Below, one piece after another: positions 25,138 to 34,093 of a stretch of DNA of 34,093 bases (its first letter is position 1; every line of letters begins with the position of its first letter). Source of the DNA: Chloroflexia bacterium (GTDB lineage Bacteria > Chloroflexota > Chloroflexia > Thermomicrobiales > JALYUS01). The notes beneath the pieces were generated by a model. That model saw only the letters and a list, made by a program, of their open reading frames with translations, searched no databases and was not told the DNA's origin. The DNA is taken from assembly GCA_025928215.1 (NCBI GenBank), contig JAICJW010000002.1:1-34093 (forward strand), given 5' to 3'. Made by a program: the position numbers and the translations under genes.

Positions 25138-27288
25138 TCAGGTCAGCCAGCCGCGCTGTCGGAGGGTTTCACTGCCCAGCAAGCCGAGCAATACTTCCTT
25201 GGTCTCCGGGTGATACTCGAACCGGTTGCGCTCGAAGTATTGCACCTGATAGGTCTTCCCGTCCGTCGCGCTCTTCTCGTCGAATGGCTCGCACAGTGGC
25301 AACCCGTAGATCGGCAATCCACCGTGTGCGTCCCAATACGTTTTGAATGTGCCGCTGAGTGTGTGGCCGACCTCCGGGAAGAACCGCAGCGCCGCGGTAT
25401 CATCCACATGTGGGACTTTCGCGAACGCCTTTTCACCGTCCCGACCTTGCACGCTCAAGACACCAAGGCGACCGAGTTCGACCGCATAGGGCGTCCCTGC
25501 CTTCTCCGGATGCGCCTCGAAGCGGGCGCGCTCGAAGTATTGGACGTTGTACGTCTTCTTGTCGTCCGGATTCGTGTCGTTGAATGCTTCCGTAATCGGG
25601 TAGCCAAATTGGGCGAGGCCGCCGTTCGCATCCCAGTACGCGAGGAAGTTCGGGCCAACATTGTGCTTCGTCTCGCTGAAGAATTTCACCCCGGTCTCAG
25701 TTGATGCCGATACGGGATCGGACGGATTGACCTGCACACTGACTTGCTGGGCATCGTCGCTGTCGAGCGGGCCGCCGCCATCCTGCACGACCGAGACGAC
25801 GAAGCGGCTGCGCTGGACGACGGCAGCGCGTATCGCGACGGTGATCGTCACGGATTCGCCGGGTTGCAGCGTTCGCCCGATTCCCCAGCGGTAGGGGGGA
25901 TCGCTGCTCGCAAGCAGTTCTGGCCCCATCGTGACCCGGACGCCGCCCTTCGTACCCGCGAAACCACGTTTCGCGTAGGTATCGCCCTCGGTATAGACGA
26001 ACGAGGGCGGTGGATCTTGCGCCGTGATCGGTGCGGAGCCGGTGTTCTTAAGGGTAACACGCGCGGTAAGCAAGTCACGGGTATACACGCTGGTATCGCC
26101 CCACGTCACCGCACTCAGTGTGGCGTCAATCTGATTGCCCGGTGTGGTTGTCACCTTGACGGCATCCGGCGGGTTCGCCGCGACGGGATCAGCGGCCGGA
26201 TCGCCCGTCCAGAGCGGCAACCCCTTCAATTCGCGACGAATATTGTCCAGATGTGGGTAGAATCCGTCACCGGGACAACTCGTATTGAGCACGCCGCGAT
26301 GACCGCTGATATTCATCACATTGTCGCGATCAATGAAGAAACCTTTGCCGATCGGGTCAAGGTCATTCGCCTTCGCGCGGATGAGCGCGACGAGCGACGA
26401 GCGCACGGCATCGGGAACCGTATGATCGGTGTAGTTGCCGAGGATGGCGATGCCGATACTGCCCCAGTTGTATTGCAACGCGTGCCCGCCGACCACGCGG
26501 TCGCCCCCGAACCGGCCCTCATAGATCGTCCCCTGCTGGTCTATCAGAAAATTGTAGCCGATGTCTCCCCAGCCCCGGGAGACGGCATGATACTGGTAGA
26601 TCGCCCGCAGCGTGGCGCGTGGATCGGTTTCGGGATCGCGCGTCACGGTATGATGAACGATGACTTTCTTGATTGCCCGATATTCCGGCGGCCAGATCTC
26701 CTTGTTGTCTTTGTCGAAGCGAAGTTTTTCATTGGCCGACCACCCCGCACGAGGGACGATGGTGATGCCATTGACGGATTGTGCGCGGAATATCGCATCG
26801 TCCGATGCGGTGAGCGTATTCACCGCCGTGAGTCGAATTAGGTCGAGCGATGAAACGGCGCCCGTGCCGCCCTGGACGGCGGCAGAATACTGCACGAAGC
26901 GCGCCGGAGAACCGATGATGAGGTTGCCGAATGTCGCGGCTTCACGCAGATCGCGCGCGTGGGAATCGGCATGAAGATGTTGCCAGTCACCCCATGCGAC
27001 ACCATCCACACTCGTGCGGACTGCCAAATCCAGCGCCACGGCGGATGGAAGCGTGGCATTCCACTGGGATTCGAGGGCATTAAAGGGGAAATCAGATTGA
27101 AGGATCGGTGAGAGGTACGGCGTGGTATCGAGCGCAATTGCGCGTTGCTCCCAGGTGAAGCGCGACGCAATCGGCTCGGCATTCACCGCGCGCGGTACCG
27201 CATAGAGCGTCGAACCTGTTACAAGAATCAGCATACGGCTTCCGGCTTGCAGCACCGCACGCCGGGTAAACTGCCGCTCGAACCCCAT
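25138..27288 (-). CDS. secreted N-acetylmuramoyl-L-alanine amidase (Amidase_2/PGRP domain) with C-terminal tandem repeats
   Basis: ORF trimmed to MGFERQFTRRAVLQAGSRMLILV... (twin-arginine-like signal). Amidase_2 motifs: VIVHHTVT, GWGDIGYNFLIDQQGTIYEGR, GHALQYNWGSIGIAILGNY and SGHRGVLNTSCPG. Two C-terminal repeats of about 85 aa. Confidence 0.85.
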   Translation of the reverse strand: MGFERQFTRRAVLQAGSRMLILVTGSTLYAVPRAVNAEPIASRFTWEQRAIALDTTPYLSPILQSDFPFNALESQWNATLPSAVALDLAVRTSVDGVAWGDWQHLHADSHARDLREAATFGNLIIGSPARFVQYSAAVQGGTGAVSSLDLIRLTAVNTLTASDDAIFRAQSVNGITIVPRAGWSANEKLRFDKDNKEIWPPEYRAIKKVIVHHTVTRDPETDPRATLRAIYQYHAVSRGWGDIGYNFLIDQQGTIYEGRFGGDRVVGGHALQYNWGSIGIAILGNYTDHTVPDAVRSSLVALIRAKANDLDPIGKGFFIDRDNVMNISGHRGVLNTSCPGDGFYPHLDNIRRELKGLPLWTGDPAADPVAANPPDAVKVTTTPGNQIDATLSAVTWGDTSVYTRDLLTARVTLKNTGSAPITAQDPPPSFVYTEGDTYAKRGFAGTKGGVRVTMGPELLASSDPPYRWGIGRTLQPGESVTITVAIRAAVVQRSRFVVSVVQDGGGPLDSDDAQQVSVQVNPSDPVSASTETGVKFFSETKHNVGPNFLAYWDANGGLAQFGYPITEAFNDTNPDDKKTYNVQYFERARFEAHPEKAGTPYAVELGRLGVLSVQGRDGEKAFAKVPHVDDTAALRFFPEVGHTLSGTFKTYWDAHGGLPIYGLPLCEPFDEKSATDGKTYQVQYFERNRFEYHPETKEVLLGLLGSETLRQRGWLT

Positions 27289-27438
27289 ACTCCCCCCTGC
27301 CTGATCGAGACGAATTCCGCTCCTCCCGCACCAGTGTCGTACGTACACACCGTACACGAACCTGATACTTACGTCAAGTTTGTGCTTGCCGCCGCAGCGA
27401 TAAACGGCTAGGATGCCGACGAACCTTGAGGAGTTGCC

Positions 27439-28404
27439 GTGGTTGATCGATTGATTGTCCGTCGTCGGGATGAGTGGGCGCGGCTTGAAGCGCTGCTGAC
27501 GTCGCGTGCCGGTGCGCGCAGCGCGGAGCACACCGAGGAACTCGGATGGCGGTATCGCGAAGCGAGCGCCGACCTCGCGCTTGCCCGCCGCGAATGGCCG
27601 ACCGATCCGGTTACACGCTACTTGAACAATCTCGTCGAGCGGGCACACCGCCGTCTTTACCGGCGGCGCCATGATACGCCGCAGGCGGTGTGGGAATTTT
27701 ACCGCGACACCTTCCCGCGCCTGTTCCGGGCGACGTTTCGCTATACGCTGGCGGCCTTTGTCACGGTGTTGGTCGGGTTCGTGATGGCCTATATCGCGAC
27801 CTTCGTCCGGCCGTCATTGGCGGAGTCGTTCGTGCCAGGCGGGAGTGGGGTGATCGAGACGATCAAACAGGGGCGGACGTGGTTCGATACGCCACCTGCC
27901 GAGCGGCCGTTCGTGTCGTCGTTCATTATGACGAACAACATTCGCGTCACGCTCCTGTGCTTTGCGGGCGGCGTCTTGTTCGGCATCCCGACCGTCCTGG
28001 TCTTGCTTCAGAATGGATTACAGATCGGTTCGATTGCCGGTTTGACGCAGGTCTACGGTATTCATGGCGCCCTCTGGTCGTTCGTTGCGGCGCATGGCTT
28101 TCTGGAACTCTCGGTCATTTTCATCAGTGGAGGGGCGGGGTTGCGCGTGGCGCACGGTATCATTCAGCCGGGTTTGCGCTCGCGCCGCGAATCTATCGCG
28201 CGCGCCGGACGAAGCGCGACGCTGATCGCGTGCGGATGCGTTCCGCTGCTGATTGTCGCCGGCACATTGGAGGGGTTCGTCTCCCCTTCGGCCTTGCCCG
28301 GTGGCCTGAAATTGCTCATCGGGCTGACAACCGGCGTGGTGCTGTATACCTATCTTCTGCTGGGTGGCCGTGGGGCGGATGATCGAAGTGGATACGTGGA
28401 GTAG
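27439..28404 (+). CDS. SpoIIM/DUF95-family integral membrane protein
   Basis: GTG start preceded by GAGGAG. Cytoplasmic N-terminal helical domain, then TM spans with the family-typical MTNNIRVTLLCFAGGVLFGIPTVLVLLQNGLQIGS and GFLELSVIFISGGAG. Confidence 0.75.
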   Translation: MVDRLIVRRRDEWARLEALLTSRAGARSAEHTEELGWRYREASADLALARREWPTDPVTRYLNNLVERAHRRLYRRRHDTPQAVWEFYRDTFPRLFRATFRYTLAAFVTVLVGFVMAYIATFVRPSLAESFVPGGSGVIETIKQGRTWFDTPPAERPFVSSFIMTNNIRVTLLCFAGGVLFGIPTVLVLLQNGLQIGSIAGLTQVYGIHGALWSFVAAHGFLELSVIFISGGAGLRVAHGIIQPGLRSRRESIARAGRSATLIACGCVPLLIVAGTLEGFVSPSALPGGLKLLIGLTTGVVLYTYLLLGGRGADDRSGYVE

Positions 28405-28924: not shown

Positions 28925-29854
28925 TCAGAGGCTGATGGTGAATCCTTGCGTTTGGAGTGCCTCTTTGGGGAGGTTTCCTTTGTCCACGCCATTGACGTTA
29001 TAGGTCACGTTGTCCGGCTTACCGCAATAGATCGTGACGGTCTGCCGTGCATCAATCTCGCGGGTTTCTCCGGGGTTGATGTACCCGACCGTCTTGGCGT
29101 TCTTGTCTCCATCGGCATAGATCTCGACCCACGCTTTGACGCTCGAGGTAATAATCACCTTGAGGCTCGTCGCGGGGAGCGCGGATGCGGTCGCTGCCGT
29201 ACCCGTCGTCGGTTGACGTGTGCCAGCGGCGGCGGTGGTTGTTCCGGTGGTGGCGATCGTCGTGCCCGTTACCGTACCCGACGCAGCTGCCGTACCCGAC
29301 ACAGTGGCAATGCGGATCGTATTCGTGTCGGTGGCCGCGGTTGGCGAGATCGCTGGCGTGCTCATGAGCGCGGAAGCGGCGGAGATCGCGGTCGGTGTGG
29401 CGGCGACCGTTGGGACGTCAATGATCGGCTTTTTCGGTGGCGTCTGCACGAGCAGGCTGTATCCCCACGCGGCCACAACGCTGAGGATGCCGATTACAAA
29501 GACGATCACGACGAAGTTCGGGGAGAAAGGACCGGAGGTATTGACTGGCCGCCCAACGGGTTGCGGGCGATAGACAACCTCCGGCTCGCCGCGCGCTTCA
29601 TTGAACAACCGGACCATTTCCTGCGGATTGAGTTGCAACCAGTTGGCGTAGTTATAGACAAACCCACGGGCATAAATTCCCGTGGGTAACAGATGAAATT
29701 CGCCGGATTCGAGCGCGGATAGATGCCGGGCCAGGATCCGGGTCTGCCGCTCGGCGTCCTGAAGACTCCGGCCGAGACCGAGGCGCGCATCGCGCAAAAT
29801 CGCCCCGAACGTCGTCGGCTGAATCGGGCCCCCGTGCTCCCACGGGCTTTGCAT
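28925..29854 (-). CDS. rodZ: RodZ-like protein (N-terminal HTH, one TM span, C-terminal DUF4115-type domain)
   Basis: HTH FGAILRDARLGLGRSLQDAERQTRILARHLSALESGEF..LP..IYARGFVYNYANWL. TM span FVVIVFVIGILSVVAAWGY. Thr/Ala-rich linker. C-terminal VKAWVEIYADGDK...GETREIDARQTVTIYCGKPDNVTYNVNG. Start taken at ATG 29854; the alternative is 29932. Confidence 0.75.
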   Translation of the reverse strand: MQSPWEHGGPIQPTTFGAILRDARLGLGRSLQDAERQTRILARHLSALESGEFHLLPTGIYARGFVYNYANWLQLNPQEMVRLFNEARGEPEVVYRPQPVGRPVNTSGPFSPNFVVIVFVIGILSVVAAWGYSLLVQTPPKKPIIDVPTVAATPTAISAASALMSTPAISPTAATDTNTIRIATVSGTAAASGTVTGTTIATTGTTTAAAGTRQPTTGTAATASALPATSLKVIITSSVKAWVEIYADGDKNAKTVGYINPGETREIDARQTVTIYCGKPDNVTYNVNGVDKGNLPKEALQTQGFTISL

Positions 29855-29949
29855 CACTGACCTTGAGTCCTTCCCGAACCGCACACACGCCACAGCGCGC
29901 GCAATCCGCGTATTCTCCCCCTCAAGCACCATTCATATGATGCGACCGC

Positions 29950-29978
29950 AGTATACGCACGACTGCCGTATTTGTCAC
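29950..29978 (-). promoter_or_regulatory. sigma70-like promoter candidate for rodZ
   Basis: Minus strand reads GTGACA-17 nt-TATACT (5/6 matches to both TTGACA and TATAAT, ideal spacing). It sits in the spacer between the Cys-module ORF stop (29993) and rodZ. Confidence 0.35.
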
Positions 29979-29992
29979 GCGCCCGGCGACTG

Positions 29993-31165
29993 CTATCCCG
30001 CGCCGGGTCGTCGTTTCGTGCCGTGGCGTTTCTCGTCGTCGTGCATTTCCTCAAGCAATGCGTCCGCCAGCGGAGTACCCGCGATGTGTGGGGATACGGC
30101 GGCTTTCGCCAGCCACCATTGGTCATTGGCTGCCCACCATGTACCGATGCACGAGAGGCAGGCCAAATCGTTCGGCCCGACGAGTTGCGGCGTTGGGAAG
30201 GCAAAGCGGTTTCTGCACCAGCCACGGTCGCCACTCTCCGCTGTCTGGAAATCGCGGCAATTAGCGCACCGCTTCCCGCGATTGCGCTGCCGCTCGGCGG
30301 CGTACCACTCTGCCTCCAGCGGCTGCGGTTGCCCACCGCGTGGCGTCGGTGGTGCTCCCGGCGCGTCATTGGAGCGCGGCGGCAGCGTGCTCTCGGCCTG
30401 GCGCGGCGGCAATGGCTGCTCGTATTCACGTGATGGCGGCGTTCGCGCGCCGGGAGGCGGTGTGCGGTACGACGATGCGATCCGTTGCTCGTCATAGCCC
30501 GGATCCGACATGACCGGGATATTGGTCGTTATCGCCGTATGGGGCGCTTGCTGCACGATCGGTGGTGACGATGGTGGCGTGTCGGCGAGCCGGGGGCGGC
30601 CAACCCCCTCATCGCCGACGACCGCCACGCGCGGGGAGCGGCGGTCATCGCGCCGTTCGCCGATTGATCCTGCCGTCGCGTCTGGCGCGGCGACCGTCTC
30701 CAATCGCCGTGGGGGCACCGTGTCGCCGGACTGTTGCGCGATCTGTCGGCGCTCCAGCGCCCGACGATGCGCCTCGCCGACATTCGATGTTCGCGAGCGT
30801 GCTACCGGCATCTGTGGCTCCTCAGTGATTGTCCGGGGTTGCTCAACGCCGACGATAATATCATCGGGGCGCATTCCCTGATAGCCGGAGCGCTGCCGCG
30901 CCGGGTCCGGCGCGGGCCGGTTTTGCCCCGGCAGGAGATCGTTTGCGCCTGCGGCCGCTTCATAGTAATCCCGATCCCAACCGATGCGACAGGCAAGTTC
31001 CTGCCGCCGAACGAGCGCAATCCCGACGATCTCCTGACAGCGTTGGTTGCGACACCAGCCGGACTCGCCGATGTCACTTTGCTCGAAGAACCGGCAGGAA
31101 CCGCACTCGCGTCTCGTCACGTAATACCCACTTTCCGTCCGCCCTGTCCGATCGTAGTCTATCAC
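29993..31165 (-). CDS. hypothetical protein with duplicated Cys-rich modules at both termini and a Pro/Arg-rich linker
   Basis: 390-aa ORF with a GTG start and good G/C third-position bias. N-terminal CGSCRFF..GWCRN..LAC and C-terminal CANCRDF..GWCRN..LACLSC. No named family recognised. Confidence 0.6.
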   Translation of the reverse strand: MIDYDRTGRTESGYYVTRRECGSCRFFEQSDIGESGWCRNQRCQEIVGIALVRRQELACRIGWDRDYYEAAAGANDLLPGQNRPAPDPARQRSGYQGMRPDDIIVGVEQPRTITEEPQMPVARSRTSNVGEAHRRALERRQIAQQSGDTVPPRRLETVAAPDATAGSIGERRDDRRSPRVAVVGDEGVGRPRLADTPPSSPPIVQQAPHTAITTNIPVMSDPGYDEQRIASSYRTPPPGARTPPSREYEQPLPPRQAESTLPPRSNDAPGAPPTPRGGQPQPLEAEWYAAERQRNRGKRCANCRDFQTAESGDRGWCRNRFAFPTPQLVGPNDLACLSCIGTWWAANDQWWLAKAAVSPHIAGTPLADALLEEMHDDEKRHGTKRRPGAG

Positions 31166-31234
31166 AGCCCGGAGCGAGAATCATGCCTCGTATGGCTCCT
31201 ATCATACAATACGTACTAGCGTACGTACGACCCC

Positions 31235-32269
31235 TCAGCCCAATCTGTAGGCGGTAACATTGTGTGCGGGGATCGGCACCGCGTGTTCAGAGCTTTCGCC
31301 CACCTGCACGCAAAGTGCCCGTTCGCCGTCGCTGAGCGCGGCAATAGATGGTGGGCTCAGTACGGTGCATGCCAATCCGTAGTGTCCCGGATCGCGCTTT
31401 TGCGTGGGCACGTTCTCGTGCGGACGCAGATCCGATTCGATCTCCCGCAGGGCATCGCCGTGTGGAATGATCGTGATCGTCTGTGTGAAGCGGTCGAGCA
31501 TCGCTTGTGCGCCATGAAGATGCTGGAACGGTGCAACGGCGCGCGCACCGGACAGGGCGTCGCCAATGCCGTCGAGTACGACGATGCCCGCTCCCATGCC
31601 GCGCCGGGATTCAGACTCGTGCGGACGATCGAGCAGTGCCCACGCGACGGGTTCCGATACGCTGCCAATGATGAGCGTGCCGGGGAATGACCGCGAGATG
31701 GGCGTGAGGTGCGCGACTTCAGCGATATGCGCGACAACGACGCTCGCTGTCCGCAACGACGGCGGAATCCCATCATCGGTAACCGCACCATCGAGCAGCG
31801 CCGGTTCGATATGAAGTGGTGGGAGATCGCCTGATTCGTCCGCAAAGGCGTATCCACATTGCGCGACCGCCGATGTGACGATGATCGCGCGTTCGCTGAT
31901 GGCGCGCACCGTGCCCCCGTAGCGCGCCCGAATCTCGTGTTCGGCGGTTTTGTTCTCGATGGCGAGTGCCCCACTATCCGGGAGACCACGCGCGATACCG
32001 CTGAAAGGCGCCGCAACCTTCCGAGTCCGGAAACCGATCCGTCGCTCGCCGAGAGAGGCACCCGCCGTATAATCCATGCCCTCGCACCGCGCAATCGCGT
32101 CCTTGGTTTCTTCCGCCGAAAGCCGGAGCATCGTGGCATAGGCGATGATCGTCGAGAAATCAGGCCTGGCAGCGATGACATCACCGGCGGCAACCGTTTC
32201 ACCTACTTCGACCCGGACAGTATCGCGCTCGCCGAGGGCATATCGCACATCCATTGTGTCGCAGTACAT
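31235..32269 (-). CDS. hypothetical protein (N-terminal lipoyl/hybrid-barrel-like motif)
   Basis: 344-aa ORF whose ATG is preceded by GAGAGG 8 nt upstream, 16 nt after the stop of the upstream ORF. VRVEVGETVAAGDVIA and VAAPFSGIARGL resemble the two half-motifs of a barrel-sandwich hybrid fold. No signal peptide or TM span. Confidence 0.6.
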   Translation of the reverse strand: MYCDTMDVRYALGERDTVRVEVGETVAAGDVIAARPDFSTIIAYATMLRLSAEETKDAIARCEGMDYTAGASLGERRIGFRTRKVAAPFSGIARGLPDSGALAIENKTAEHEIRARYGGTVRAISERAIIVTSAVAQCGYAFADESGDLPPLHIEPALLDGAVTDDGIPPSLRTASVVVAHIAEVAHLTPISRSFPGTLIIGSVSEPVAWALLDRPHESESRRGMGAGIVVLDGIGDALSGARAVAPFQHLHGAQAMLDRFTQTITIIPHGDALREIESDLRPHENVPTQKRDPGHYGLACTVLSPPSIAALSDGERALCVQVGESSEHAVPIPAHNVTAYRLG

Positions 32270-32285
32270 TGTTTAGCCTCTCATG

Positions 32286-33977
32286 CTATGCATCGTTCAG
32301 TGCATCCCGTCCGGTCGCGGCCGGTCTGAGCCGTCCGCTTACATTCGGCCGCGACGCATGTGCAGTGACGGCGGCGAGGGGGCGACGACGCGTATCCATC
32401 AGCACGCCGCCCGCGCCGCCATCAAGGGCGATCCGTGTTCCCCCGGTCCCGTGGCCCGTCAGACTGAGCGTTGCCGCCCCCTCGCAGACGATCGTCGTCA
32501 GCGCGTCGGCTGCCACCTCCGTCGTCCGTGTGCGGCCATCATGGACGAGCGTTGCCGACAAAGCGCCGCGTGTGCGTTCGCCAGCCAACGACGCCTGCAC
32601 GACCGATCCGACGATCAGAATCGCGTCATGCGCGAGGAGGCTGGATGCGTCGGCGGGGTAGGGTATCGCGAGCGCGCCGACCGCGGGGATCAAATCATTG
32701 CTGTCGCAGGCCACGACAGCAACACGGATGGTCGGCATCAGGTCGGCGACGAGGCGTAGCGCCGCCGCTGACGATCCTAGCTGTGTCAACGTGGGGCCGA
32801 GCATCCAGAGCGCCCCATCCGGGATCCGCTCGAACGCCTTGCCAAGAACCAGCCGAATTGCAACACGTGCGAAGGCGGCGGCAATTGCGCGGTCTTCGTC
32901 ATCGGTGAGGAGAGCCATCGGCCACGAAACGCGGCGCAAGGCCCATGTGCGCAAAAATTGTGCGTCGAGTGTGAAGGGAACCCAGCGGGCAATCTGCTCC
33001 GGTGCGCACCGATTCAGCAGTCGGATCACGCCGCGCGCGCAATCAATGTCCGGATCGTGATAGACCGTTGCCCCGCTCTCGTCCGCGATGATTGCGGTGG
33101 TACCCTCACTGACGTCAAGATAGACCGATGGTTGACCTCGCTCGACGCTGACCGCCCGCATTGCGACGGCGAGCGCTTCGGGGCGAGAGAGGAGGGGCGA
33201 TTCATCAGGAATCCATTGCCGACAGCGCGTGGTACGCATCCGATTCATGGCGTTGGTCAGTTGACGCGCACTCTGGTCGCCGCGCGGAATCACGATCGTA
33301 TCGGGCGGTACGGTAGCGGTGAGCGCGGTGTCGGATGTGAGTACAAGGCAGCGCGCATCGCCCGACGACTCCGTTTCATTCAGGGCGGTGAGCAGTTGGG
33401 CGGCCCAGAGGGGGAGTGCGCCGGGCGGAATAACGACTTGTAGCGCCTCGTTGCGCCCGGCGCGCCACAGATCGGTCAGCGGCTGACACCACGACCGATT
33501 GCGCGCGCGCTGTCGCGACGGTATGGCGGTCTCCGCAACCACGTGTGCGACGCCATATCGCTCCGCAATGCCAAGTGCGGTCGCATCGTCCCGACTTCGC
33601 TCGCCGACGATGTGCAAGCGAACAGGTGGCCCCGCCACGACCACCGCACTGGTCATCTCGCCCGAGAGCGCGTACCCGCATTGGCATGCGAGGCGGGCGA
33701 GTGCGCCCCGCATGCCTCGTTGCGGTTCCGTCACGATCGCGGGGCTGCCCGCGATGAATCGCGCGTCGCCTTCCGTTGGTGCGATCAGTGCGAGATTTGC
33801 CTGATAAGAGTTCGCCGTGACGATGATGCGTTGCGGTGTCACGCCGCCCGGTGGAATAGTCGGTACGGCGGACACGTCATCAGCGGCGTTACGCACGGCA
33901 TTGCCTCCACGACGACCGGTTGCCCGGCAGGTTGGTTCCATTGCGACCGTCGGCACCGTGGATGCCGACCTATCCAT
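32286..33977 (-). CDS. hypothetical protein, possibly a divergent actin-fold (ASKHA, GlmL/MutL- or EutA-like) protein
   Basis: 563-aa ORF, the longest reading frame in this region. VYLDVSEGTTAIIADESG and ACDSNDLIPAVGALA resemble ASKHA/GlmL-type motifs (from memory). No clear RBS, so the start is uncertain (ATG 33977 or internal). Confidence 0.6.
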   Translation of the reverse strand: MDRSASTVPTVAMEPTCRATGRRGGNAVRNAADDVSAVPTIPPGGVTPQRIIVTANSYQANLALIAPTEGDARFIAGSPAIVTEPQRGMRGALARLACQCGYALSGEMTSAVVVAGPPVRLHIVGERSRDDATALGIAERYGVAHVVAETAIPSRQRARNRSWCQPLTDLWRAGRNEALQVVIPPGALPLWAAQLLTALNETESSGDARCLVLTSDTALTATVPPDTIVIPRGDQSARQLTNAMNRMRTTRCRQWIPDESPLLSRPEALAVAMRAVSVERGQPSVYLDVSEGTTAIIADESGATVYHDPDIDCARGVIRLLNRCAPEQIARWVPFTLDAQFLRTWALRRVSWPMALLTDDEDRAIAAAFARVAIRLVLGKAFERIPDGALWMLGPTLTQLGSSAAALRLVADLMPTIRVAVVACDSNDLIPAVGALAIPYPADASSLLAHDAILIVGSVVQASLAGERTRGALSATLVHDGRTRTTEVAADALTTIVCEGAATLSLTGHGTGGTRIALDGGAGGVLMDTRRRPLAAVTAHASRPNVSGRLRPAATGRDALNDA

Positions 33978-34031
33978 TGTCTGTCTGCACGTTCGCGTCA
34001 GTCTATCACGATCAATGCGGTGCGTCAGGAC

Positions 34032-34093
34032 TTACGATGCCCCGGATCGCAGATCAGCGGAATCGAGCCAGATCGTCAGCGGCCCGGCATTGA
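34032..34093 (-). CDS. possible 3' end of a CDS continuing beyond the right window edge
   Basis: The minus frame is open from the window edge: NAGPLTIWLDSADLRSGAS, then TAA at 34032-34034, 54 nt upstream of the next ORF. Only 19 codons are visible, so this is weakly supported. Confidence 0.25.
   Translation of the reverse strand, partial: NAGPLTIWLDSADLRSGAS

Follow-up and report, generated by a model that had tools for sequence, protein, structure and literature searches.

In the MreB elongasome, described in E. coli, Caulobacter and Bacillus, RodZ is the membrane adaptor. To our knowledge, all known RodZ partners are cytoskeletal or cell-wall-synthesis proteins, and we know of no iron–sulphur (Fe-S) or cysteine-rich cytoplasmic one; a full-text literature search found no report of such a partner and nothing relevant for RodZ in combination with Chloroflexi. 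The cell-envelope biology of Chloroflexota is poorly understood. Here, we describe a rodZ locus at the end of a 34,093-nucleotide stretch of DNA, hereafter the window (contig JAICJW010000002.1, positions 1 to 34,093), from a Chloroflexia bacterium of the Thermomicrobiales. The locus resembles the elongasome systems in its canonical RodZ and in the PBP2, amidase and SpoIIM-like genes nearby. Three large genes, here called A, B and C, precede rodZ, and a sequence-only reading had taken this block for a single candidate module linked to morphogenesis. We find that C is tightly and specifically linked to rodZ, which supports that reading in part, whereas A and B form a separate pair: the locus consists of rodZ and an undescribed conserved partner, C, standing beside a degenerate copy of an uncharacterised, widespread A-B module. 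We think it rather likely that, in this lineage alone, two independent conserved pairs, A-B and C-rodZ, have become neighbours. Splitting it in this way corrects an over-interpretation of local synteny.

The described systems closest to the three genes are of different kinds. C has no similarity to MreB, MreC, MreD or RodA and resembles the high-potential iron–sulphur proteins (HiPIPs; PF01355), which in their classical form are small periplasmic electron carriers with a signal peptide. A shows homology, along almost all of its length, to the GlmL/MutL family (PF13941; NCBIfam accessory_GlmL and ornith_Or-4), which is unrelated to the mismatch-repair protein MutL; these proteins are accessory to B12-dependent glutamate and ornithine mutases, a role proposed for clostridia. 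The N-terminus of B matches, at motif level, the sandwich-barrel hybrid motif (SBHM) and barrel-sandwich hybrid domains of the RNA polymerase (RNAP) beta' subunit, the NusG insert, the biotinyl and lipoyl carriers, RnfC_N and NqrA_N. The genes, as taken from the list of open reading frames (ORFs) of the window, are as follows.

28925..29932, minus strand: rodZ, 335 aa as the longest ORF, with HTH_25, a transmembrane span and RodZ_C
29993..31165, minus strand: gene C, 390 aa
31235..32269, minus strand: gene B, 344 aa
32286..33977, minus strand: gene A, 563 aa as the longest ORF
34032..34093, minus strand: 3' end of dtd (D-aminoacyl-tRNA deacylase), with its TAA at 34032

For A, B and C, these coordinates and the common strand are the same as in the sequence-only reading, as are the gaps of 16 nt between A and B and 69 nt between B and C, the GAGAGG ahead of the ATG of B, which lies 7 nt before it, and the end of the upstream ORF tail at 34032. 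The gap between C and rodZ is 60–138 nt.

RodZ matches the Pfam models HTH_25 (8.5e-18) and RodZ_C (1.3e-5) and has a single transmembrane span at aa ~140-162 (19-residue Kyte–Doolittle average 2.52 at aa 140-158). Its linkage to C was followed in both directions. A tblastn survey seeded with C gave 30 loci, 24 of which are distinct and have downstream sequence. In all 24, rodZ lies downstream of C on the same strand; it is the next gene in 23, with gaps of 40–147 nt where genes are called. The sole interrupted adjacency is that of L002, where one DUF1326 and two PpoB2 calls (possibly one split gene) stand between C and rodZ (L002:13922-15385). Nitrolancea hollandica (L022) is among the organisms with the pair. 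Long forms of C are found upstream of rodZ in unrelated neighbourhoods that contain neither A nor B, next to genes for Lactamase_B and enolase (L010, L012) or for acetyl-CoA synthetase (L011). The reverse test was seeded with rodZ in metagenomes, and related loci were counted if they had at least 400 nt of upstream sequence: 33 of 41 carry C upstream of rodZ. Upstream of more distant rodZ genes, C was found in none of 27 loci. C and rodZ are a conserved pair that extends through the Thermomicrobiales-type Chloroflexota and is bounded to one rodZ clade.

The distribution of A and B is different. They stand beside C only in loci whose C shares 43% or more identity with that of the window. In the close clade (L001, L002, L008, L009), the order asparaginase, NicO, ispD, ispF, dtd, A, B, C, rodZ, RidA, SpoIIM, amidase, PBP2 is conserved as a whole, and because the entire neighbourhood is syntenic, gene order there says little about function. 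A and B are absent from the 3–8 kb upstream of C in nine C-seeded loci, and from the 0.2–5 kb upstream in 30 of the 33 rodZ-seeded loci carrying C; only the three closest of the rodZ-seeded loci have them. The conserved gene order implied by a single module is thus seen across lineages for C-rodZ, while the arrangement dtd-A-B-C-rodZ is confined to one syntenic clade.

Relatives of A and B occur together at many other loci. An exhaustive profile search gave 502 relatives of A, the distant ones having 550–740 aa and matching PF13941 at 1e-50 to 1e-66. Loci of such canonical pairs were assembled in two sets: 80 Anaerolineae loci (set 1, L031-L110) and 78 further loci (set 2, L111-L188), the latter seeded from a different GlmL-like subgroup of ~590 aa. 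In set 1, a same-strand B-like ORF of ~360 aa directly follows the GlmL-like gene in 76 of the 77 loci with enough sequence. In set 2, a B-like gene follows in 57 of the 74 loci with room for it; these pairs belong to Chloroflexia, Caldilineae, Thermogemmatispora, Symbiobacterium and Fermentithermobacillaceae. The set 2 loci without a detectable B-like gene, where the GlmL-like gene stands alone, are mostly from Armatimonadota and WOR-3. Comparison by hhalign relates the A family to the canonical relatives over 479 columns (99.6% probability, E 4.8e-24) and the B family to the ~360-aa ORFs over 324 collinear columns (97.1%, E 5.8e-11); by this measure, B is a homologue of the gene directly 3' of canonical GlmL-like genes. 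The canonical pair is present at more than 130 of the loci, and altogether in hundreds of genomes, of Chloroflexota and Bacillota; A-B is an old two-gene unit. In Fermentithermobacillaceae and Symbiobacterium, there are also tandem A-B/A-B duplications on one strand (L141, L153).

At 110 or more loci, mostly of Chloroflexota, the A-B pair is preceded by two or three unannotated genes for predicted membrane proteins. They code for a hydrophobic protein of 212–217 aa (34/80 loci of set 1 and 27/78 of set 2), a large acidic or zinc-ribbon protein of 600–1300 aa (72/80 and 37/78) and a hydrophobic protein of 244–251 aa (76/80 and 38/78). The upstream genes of the two sets are homologous to each other. 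None of the three belongs to a Pfam family, and the scans gave only sub-threshold matches, the large protein matching SH3_3 and zinc-ribbon models in this way. In set 2, 16 loci further encode a DUF6754 protein, and the Anaerolineae clusters add an acidic low-complexity protein of 326 aa with hydrophobic segments. Example clusters, in which the genes are on the same strand, are at the following positions.

L060:439-4350, L110:4211-4984, L037:8162-9187, L112:1299-3134, L157:3225-3977 and L146:204-992, same strand: example canonical A-B cluster loci

By tblastn, the window contains none of these membrane-protein partners. Conversely, C is absent from all 158 canonical-pair loci. The rodZ gene is absent from the 80 Anaerolineae loci and is carried by only one of the 78 further loci, L113, a Chloroflexota metagenome-assembled genome (MAG), where a canonical A-B pair immediately precedes a bona fide rodZ and C is missing (L113:555-4911). 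In the sister locus L112, a gene for a YbaK-like aminoacyl-tRNA deacylase takes the place of rodZ (L112:3863-7732). The A-B pair of the window is likewise flanked by an aminoacyl-tRNA editing gene, dtd.

Homologies and linkage statistics of this kind are shown directly, as is the loss of motifs in A described below; the first two allow the block to be weighed as one unit or two. As one operon, A, B, C and rodZ would make a four-gene morphogenesis module in which A acts with RodZ as an actin-like or scaffold component. The four genes are indeed on one strand with short gaps (16, 69 and 60–138 nt), and the order A-B-C-rodZ is kept in nine C-seeded and three rodZ-seeded loci. The surroundings of the canonical pairs, with their membrane-protein genes, hint at an envelope role, and PilM, an actin-like component of a membrane machine, is among the structural matches of A. 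Two further observations favour the single operon and weigh against two independent pairs: A-B stays beside C-rodZ down to 31% identity in A and 26% in B (L009, L020), and canonical A-B independently adjoins rodZ in L113. A third point against our reading is that eight rodZ loci of moderate similarity have no detectable C and no ORF with a Cys module upstream, and a fourth that co-transcription of C with rodZ and contact between C and RodZ are a matter of guilt by association. However, the whole neighbourhood from asparaginase, NicO, ispD, ispF and dtd to SpoIIM and the amidase is syntenic in the close clade, so that the kept order is not independent evidence; the sister of L113 has the YbaK-like gene in the position of rodZ; and most lineages have C-rodZ without A-B. 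Because C-rodZ occurs without A-B, and A-B without rodZ at more than 130 loci, the three genes do not form one module. We consider the four-gene module unlikely, and give the same low probability to a functional tie between A-B and rodZ, for which L113 and the persistence of the order down to 31% identity of A speak. The position of A-B beside C-rodZ is probably historical.

C is the gene of the block that belongs with rodZ. It has 81 homologues, in short forms of 320–440 aa and long forms of 550–590 aa, which share one architecture: an N-terminal Cys module, a basic helix, a variable linker rich in Pro, Arg and Ala, a C-terminal Cys module and a conserved tail. In the C of the window, the linker (aa ~70-285) has 17% P, 12.5% R and 11% A. 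The conserved elements are the following.

30956..31117, minus strand: N-terminal Cys module of C, aa 17-70, C21-x2-C24-RFFE...G-W-C38...L-A-C59-R-x-G-W
30740..30790, minus strand: basic helix of C, aa 126-142, inside the linker, with the core V129-x-E-A-H-R-R-A-L-E-R139
30104..30286, minus strand: C-terminal Cys module of C, aa 294-354, C300-x2-C303-R-x-F...G-W-C317...L-A-C336...G-T-W-W-A..D..W

The sequence-only reading had seen duplicated Cys modules here, and the family alignments agree with it: C21, C24, C38 and C59 are invariant or nearly so, C300, C303, C317, C336, W343 and W344 are invariant, the motif WW..D..W is conserved, and a comparison of the two modules shows them to be homologous to each other. 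In the helix, V129, A132, H133, A136, E138 and R139 are invariant across short and long forms. C has no transmembrane span, signal peptide or hydrophobic N-terminus (highest 19-residue Kyte–Doolittle average 0.94).

The likeness to HiPIPs lies in four invariant Cys per module and in their surroundings: C-x2-C-R-F/Y-F/Y, then G-[WYH]-C, and a fourth Cys with Trp after it. Among Pfam families, HIPIP alone recurs. It scores 23.7 bits on C (gathering score 22) in two stretches, the better at aa 291-324, and gives matches with E up to 1 in 26 of the 28 members of the C family. Of the isolated modules, 11 out of 20 match it at E up to 1, below the gathering score (best E 7.6e-4). A module profile run against the PDB found HiPIPs only, with weak E-values: PioC (6xyv), 0.053, and the Rhodoferax HiPIP (1hlq), 0.5. 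The same search with full-length C returned low-complexity noise plus PioC. C differs from these proteins in having two modules in one predicted cytoplasmic protein of 390–590 aa, with a long disordered linker and no Tat signal, and in the linkage of its gene to rodZ and not to photosynthetic or respiratory electron-transfer genes; its cofactor is putative. A periplasmic HiPIP, which we also considered for C, was rejected for want of a signal peptide.

The modules would most likely bind a [4Fe-4S] cluster, or else zinc. Several points tell against the first of these. The similarity to HiPIPs is marginal, single modules falling below the gathering threshold; the spacing between the third and fourth Cys is 18–20 in the modules of C versus ~13 in classical HiPIPs; C is predicted to be cytoplasmic and classical HiPIPs are periplasmic; and zinc binding would be equally compatible with the sequence. 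The alternative, in which the modules are structural zinc knuckles of the ribbon or treble-clef type and C is a metal-stabilised, largely disordered protein that serves RodZ as a scaffold or adaptor and plays no part in redox, draws on the scores of the single modules, on the predicted location and on other points: CxxC...C...C is a generic zinc signature, one module weakly matches a zinc-ribbon model, and one family member weakly matches a treble-clef model. On the other side, HiPIPs are the only consistent family and PDB matches (26/28 members; PioC and 1hlq), and the aromatic residues flanking the ligands are those of HiPIPs (CxxCRFF, GWC, C..GxWW). We regard zinc knuckles as a serious possibility, though one that falls short of probable.

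For gene A, a word-indexed search gave 26 homologues. Each is labelled 'hypothetical' and comes from a MAG of Thermomicrobiales or other Chloroflexota, and the clusters of its distant relatives carry no other name than 'hypothetical protein'. Direct scans of A against Pfam and NCBIfam returned no match at E up to 1; PF13941 is weakly matched by 7 of 23 close relatives (best E 0.0019). A PDB profile search with the A family found only spurious matches to designed armadillo repeats. The homology of A to PF13941 is seen only via intermediates or by profile–profile comparison (the hhalign result above), a direct match to the family hidden Markov model being absent. A full-text literature search on PF13941, GlmL and the fold of acetate and sugar kinases, Hsp70 and actin (ASKHA) found nothing relevant. 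The AlphaFold2 (AF2) model of A, made from the family alignment, has a pLDDT of 77.6 and a pTM of 0.78. Its top 50 Foldseek matches in the PDB are all ASKHA proteins, including the DnaK nucleotide-binding domain, sugar kinases, acetate and butyrate kinases, Ppx/GppA, PilM and diol-dehydratase reactivase; because the TM-scores are low (0.2–0.46), no specific ASKHA family is indicated. The degenerate actin-fold-like motifs noticed in the sequence-only reading are real, as these matches and the motif table show, and the structural and profile–profile checks it proposed led to the ASKHA fold. Profile comparison and model together identify A as a strongly diverged member of the GlmL/MutL (PF13941) ASKHA family. 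The sequence-only reading could place none of the three proteins in a family; this no longer holds at superfamily level for A, nor for C, whose whole-protein HIPIP score reaches the gathering threshold, and all three are still functionally uncharacterised, as it said. The following parts of A can be distinguished.

aa 453-530: extra C-terminal beta domain of A
33798..33830, minus strand: degenerate PHOSPHATE-1 of A, aa 50-60 RIIVTANSYQA, from the motif table and the hhalign alignment
33090..33122, minus strand: retained PHOSPHATE-2-like motif of A, aa 286-296 YLDVSEGTTAI, from the motif table

According to the motif table, the canonical relatives all keep PHOSPHATE-1 (D-[FCVI]-G-S..T-[RK]), PHOSPHATE-2 and ADENOSINE (G.GG). 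PHOSPHATE-1 is lost throughout the A clade, N56 occupying the Asp position in the A of the window, and ADENOSINE is shortened by two residues (L--GP) across the whole clade. The clade keeps LDVxxGTT and the family C-terminal motif GGxGGxLxDxRxRPL, and D288, G292 and T294 of the PHOSPHATE-2-like motif are invariant in the A-family alignment. Because two of the three nucleotide-binding motifs are lost, A is probably not an ATPase and would be a non-catalytic scaffold. A thus shares with GlmL/MutL the ASKHA fold and the PHOSPHATE-2-like motif, and with its longer (550–740 aa) PF13941-positive relatives the C-terminal GGxxGxxxDxRxRP[LI]; it differs in having no PF13941 match, no PHOSPHATE-1, no full ADENOSINE and no mutase genes nearby. 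Its true relatives are this uncharacterised subgroup of 550–740 aa, whose genes are always paired with a B-like gene and in most cases also stand near genes for membrane proteins.

Membership of A in the PF13941 superfamily raises the question of whether A-B serves a coenzyme-B12-dependent mutase as a GlmL-type accessory or reactivase, with a metabolic and not an envelope role. The canonical relatives do weakly match the NCBIfam models for GlmL and the ornithine-degradation protein Or-4, but they lie far below the equivalog cutoffs (84 vs 600 bits). The 10-kb flanks on both sides in L001, L002, L008 and L009 contain no B12-mutase genes (glmS/glmE, oraS/oraE), and none occurs in the other neighbourhoods inspected or among the conserved neighbours of the canonical A relatives, which are membrane-protein genes. 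With the nucleotide-binding motifs lost in the A clade as well, a mutase reactivase was rejected as highly improbable.

For B, 10 homologues of 25–69% identity were found. It has neither a transmembrane span nor a signal peptide. Two parts can be delimited.

aa ~8-40 and ~95-130: sandwich-barrel-hybrid motif halves of B, by motif-level matches
rest of B: middle alpha/beta region and C-terminal beta region

Hybrid-barrel-like half-motifs had been pointed out in the sequence-only reading, and they reappear in profile searches. The B-family profile matches the SBHM of RNAP beta' in the PDB (E 6e-6), the biotin carrier 1dcz (0.13) and the NusG insert, and the N-termini of B and its relatives match RnfC_N, Biotin_lipoyl_2 and NqrA_N of Pfam, all below threshold. 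B differs from the hybrid domains named above in that it lacks the lysine context of lipoyl and biotinyl carriers and matches no Pfam model above threshold. Direct scans of B against Pfam and NCBIfam returned nothing above threshold, NCBIfam gave nothing on the canonical B-like proteins, and the family has no annotation in either. The remaining ~220 residues match nothing except, in two of five relatives, a sub-threshold KOW motif (best E 4.8e-4; 20.3 bits, gathering score 22.3). The AF2 model, built on a 10-sequence alignment, has a pLDDT of only 34.7; B could not be modelled, which counts as a further point against the scheme presented below.

Every functional statement on A, B and C draws on genomic context and sequence; this applies to co-transcription, metal binding, RodZ contact and a sensing role, all of which we infer. 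In the scheme of two independent pairs, C would be a soluble cytoplasmic protein, most likely co-transcribed with rodZ and, most likely too, an accessory to the elongation machinery of RodZ and MreB. It would probably act on the cytoplasmic HTH domain of RodZ, onto which it could dock by its helix or its modules, or on MreB. The metal modules and the invariant helix (EAHRRALERR) would be the binding or sensing elements and the disordered linker a flexible tether. With an Fe-S cofactor, C could bring a redox, oxygen or iron input to wall elongation; with zinc, it could be a structural adaptor. B would be the obligate partner of A, and A-B most likely a nucleotide-independent heteromer left over from a membrane-associated ASKHA machine; only this remnant would persist in the present clade, inserted between dtd and C.

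A bolder version, which we hold to be decidedly unlikely, would give C two [4Fe-4S] clusters with which it switches the elongasome in response to oxygen, redox state or iron by binding the RodZ HTH domain or MreB, an Fe-S-based control of rod-shape morphogenesis shared by Thermomicrobiales-type Chloroflexota, the nitrite oxidiser Nitrolancea among them; A-B would moreover be the soluble core of a widespread five-gene membrane-associated actin-fold machine, kept here as a nucleotide-independent remnant recruited to the locus. If the role suggested for C is correct, cell shape would have an input of a new kind, a metal-binding, largely disordered cytoplasmic protein whose gene is kept with rodZ across an order of Chloroflexota. 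The comparison also defines a two-gene core, a GlmL-like ASKHA protein and its putative sandwich-barrel-hybrid partner, as a target for functional discovery.

The gene calls themselves were compared with L001, a related contig that is 98–99% identical to the window and carries Pfam gene calls. The ORF tail upstream of A is dtd and belongs to neither gene pair: its translation, NAGPLTIWLDSADLRSGAS*, is identical to the C-terminus of a 153-aa PF02580 (Tyr_Deacylase) gene on L001. In these genes, the GC fraction is 0.68–0.71 at the third codon position (0.52–0.58 at position 2), so the G/C-rich third positions on which the sequence-only reading relied are real. Its statement that no long ORF competes with them does not strictly hold: B is overlapped by ORFs in other frames, the longest of 281 aa. 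These are usual in DNA of 62–67% GC, and homologues back only the frames of A, B and C given above. The abundance of long alternative-frame ORFs, together with the poor conservation of B (25–69%) and its failure to be modelled, could suggest that the GC-rich DNA has merely left three frames open by chance, or that the genes are pseudogenes in decay. This was rejected as extremely improbable: dozens of independent metagenomes encode homologues that span the whole proteins, keep their lengths and share many invariant residues, the codon-position GC fits coding sequence, and A gives a confident AF2 model. A, B and C are real genes, as had been supposed.

Some starts probably lie downstream of those of the longest ORFs. 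Most A homologues begin at the position of V28 (GTG 33896, 536 aa), and the JGI gene call starts A at M13 (ATG 33941, 551 aa); the true start is probably one of these two. The rodZ orthologues begin in the alignment at the position of M27 (ATG at 29854), which is probably the true start of rodZ, the longest-ORF start being too far upstream. Two candidate signals were found in the gaps.

31212..31229, minus strand: weak terminator-like hairpin in the B-C gap, 5 pairs followed by a T-poor tail
29950..29978, minus strand: promoter-like site GTGACA-17-TATACT in the C-rodZ gap, from the consensus scan

The hairpin sits at the boundary between the two gene pairs. The consensus scan gave five terminator-like sites versus 3.1 expected, and the hairpin in the B-C gap is not significant by itself. 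The promoter-like site is present where the sequence-only reading had placed it, and had been taken there as a sign that rodZ can be transcribed on its own; with one site found versus 1.4 expected in shuffles, the match is no better than chance, and an internal rodZ promoter was dropped as evidence. Rfam and tRNA scans of the window were empty.

Pfam calls on L001 bear out PBP2, Amidase_2, SpoIIM and RodZ, the envelope and shape genes that the sequence-only reading had listed around the block. In the window, the amidase ORF (25138..27672, minus strand, 844 aa) overlaps the 5' end of the SpoIIM-like gene (27439..28404, plus strand) by ~230 nt. The amidase gene call on L001 is 716 aa, so the real start of the amidase lies further downstream than the ORF start. 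Just upstream of A, beyond the end of the window, the genes ispD and ispF of the MEP pathway are followed by dtd (L001:5440-7134). In E. coli, rodZ adjoins ispG, which encodes a [4Fe-4S] enzyme of the same pathway, and a recurring neighbourhood of rodZ and MEP genes might merit a census.

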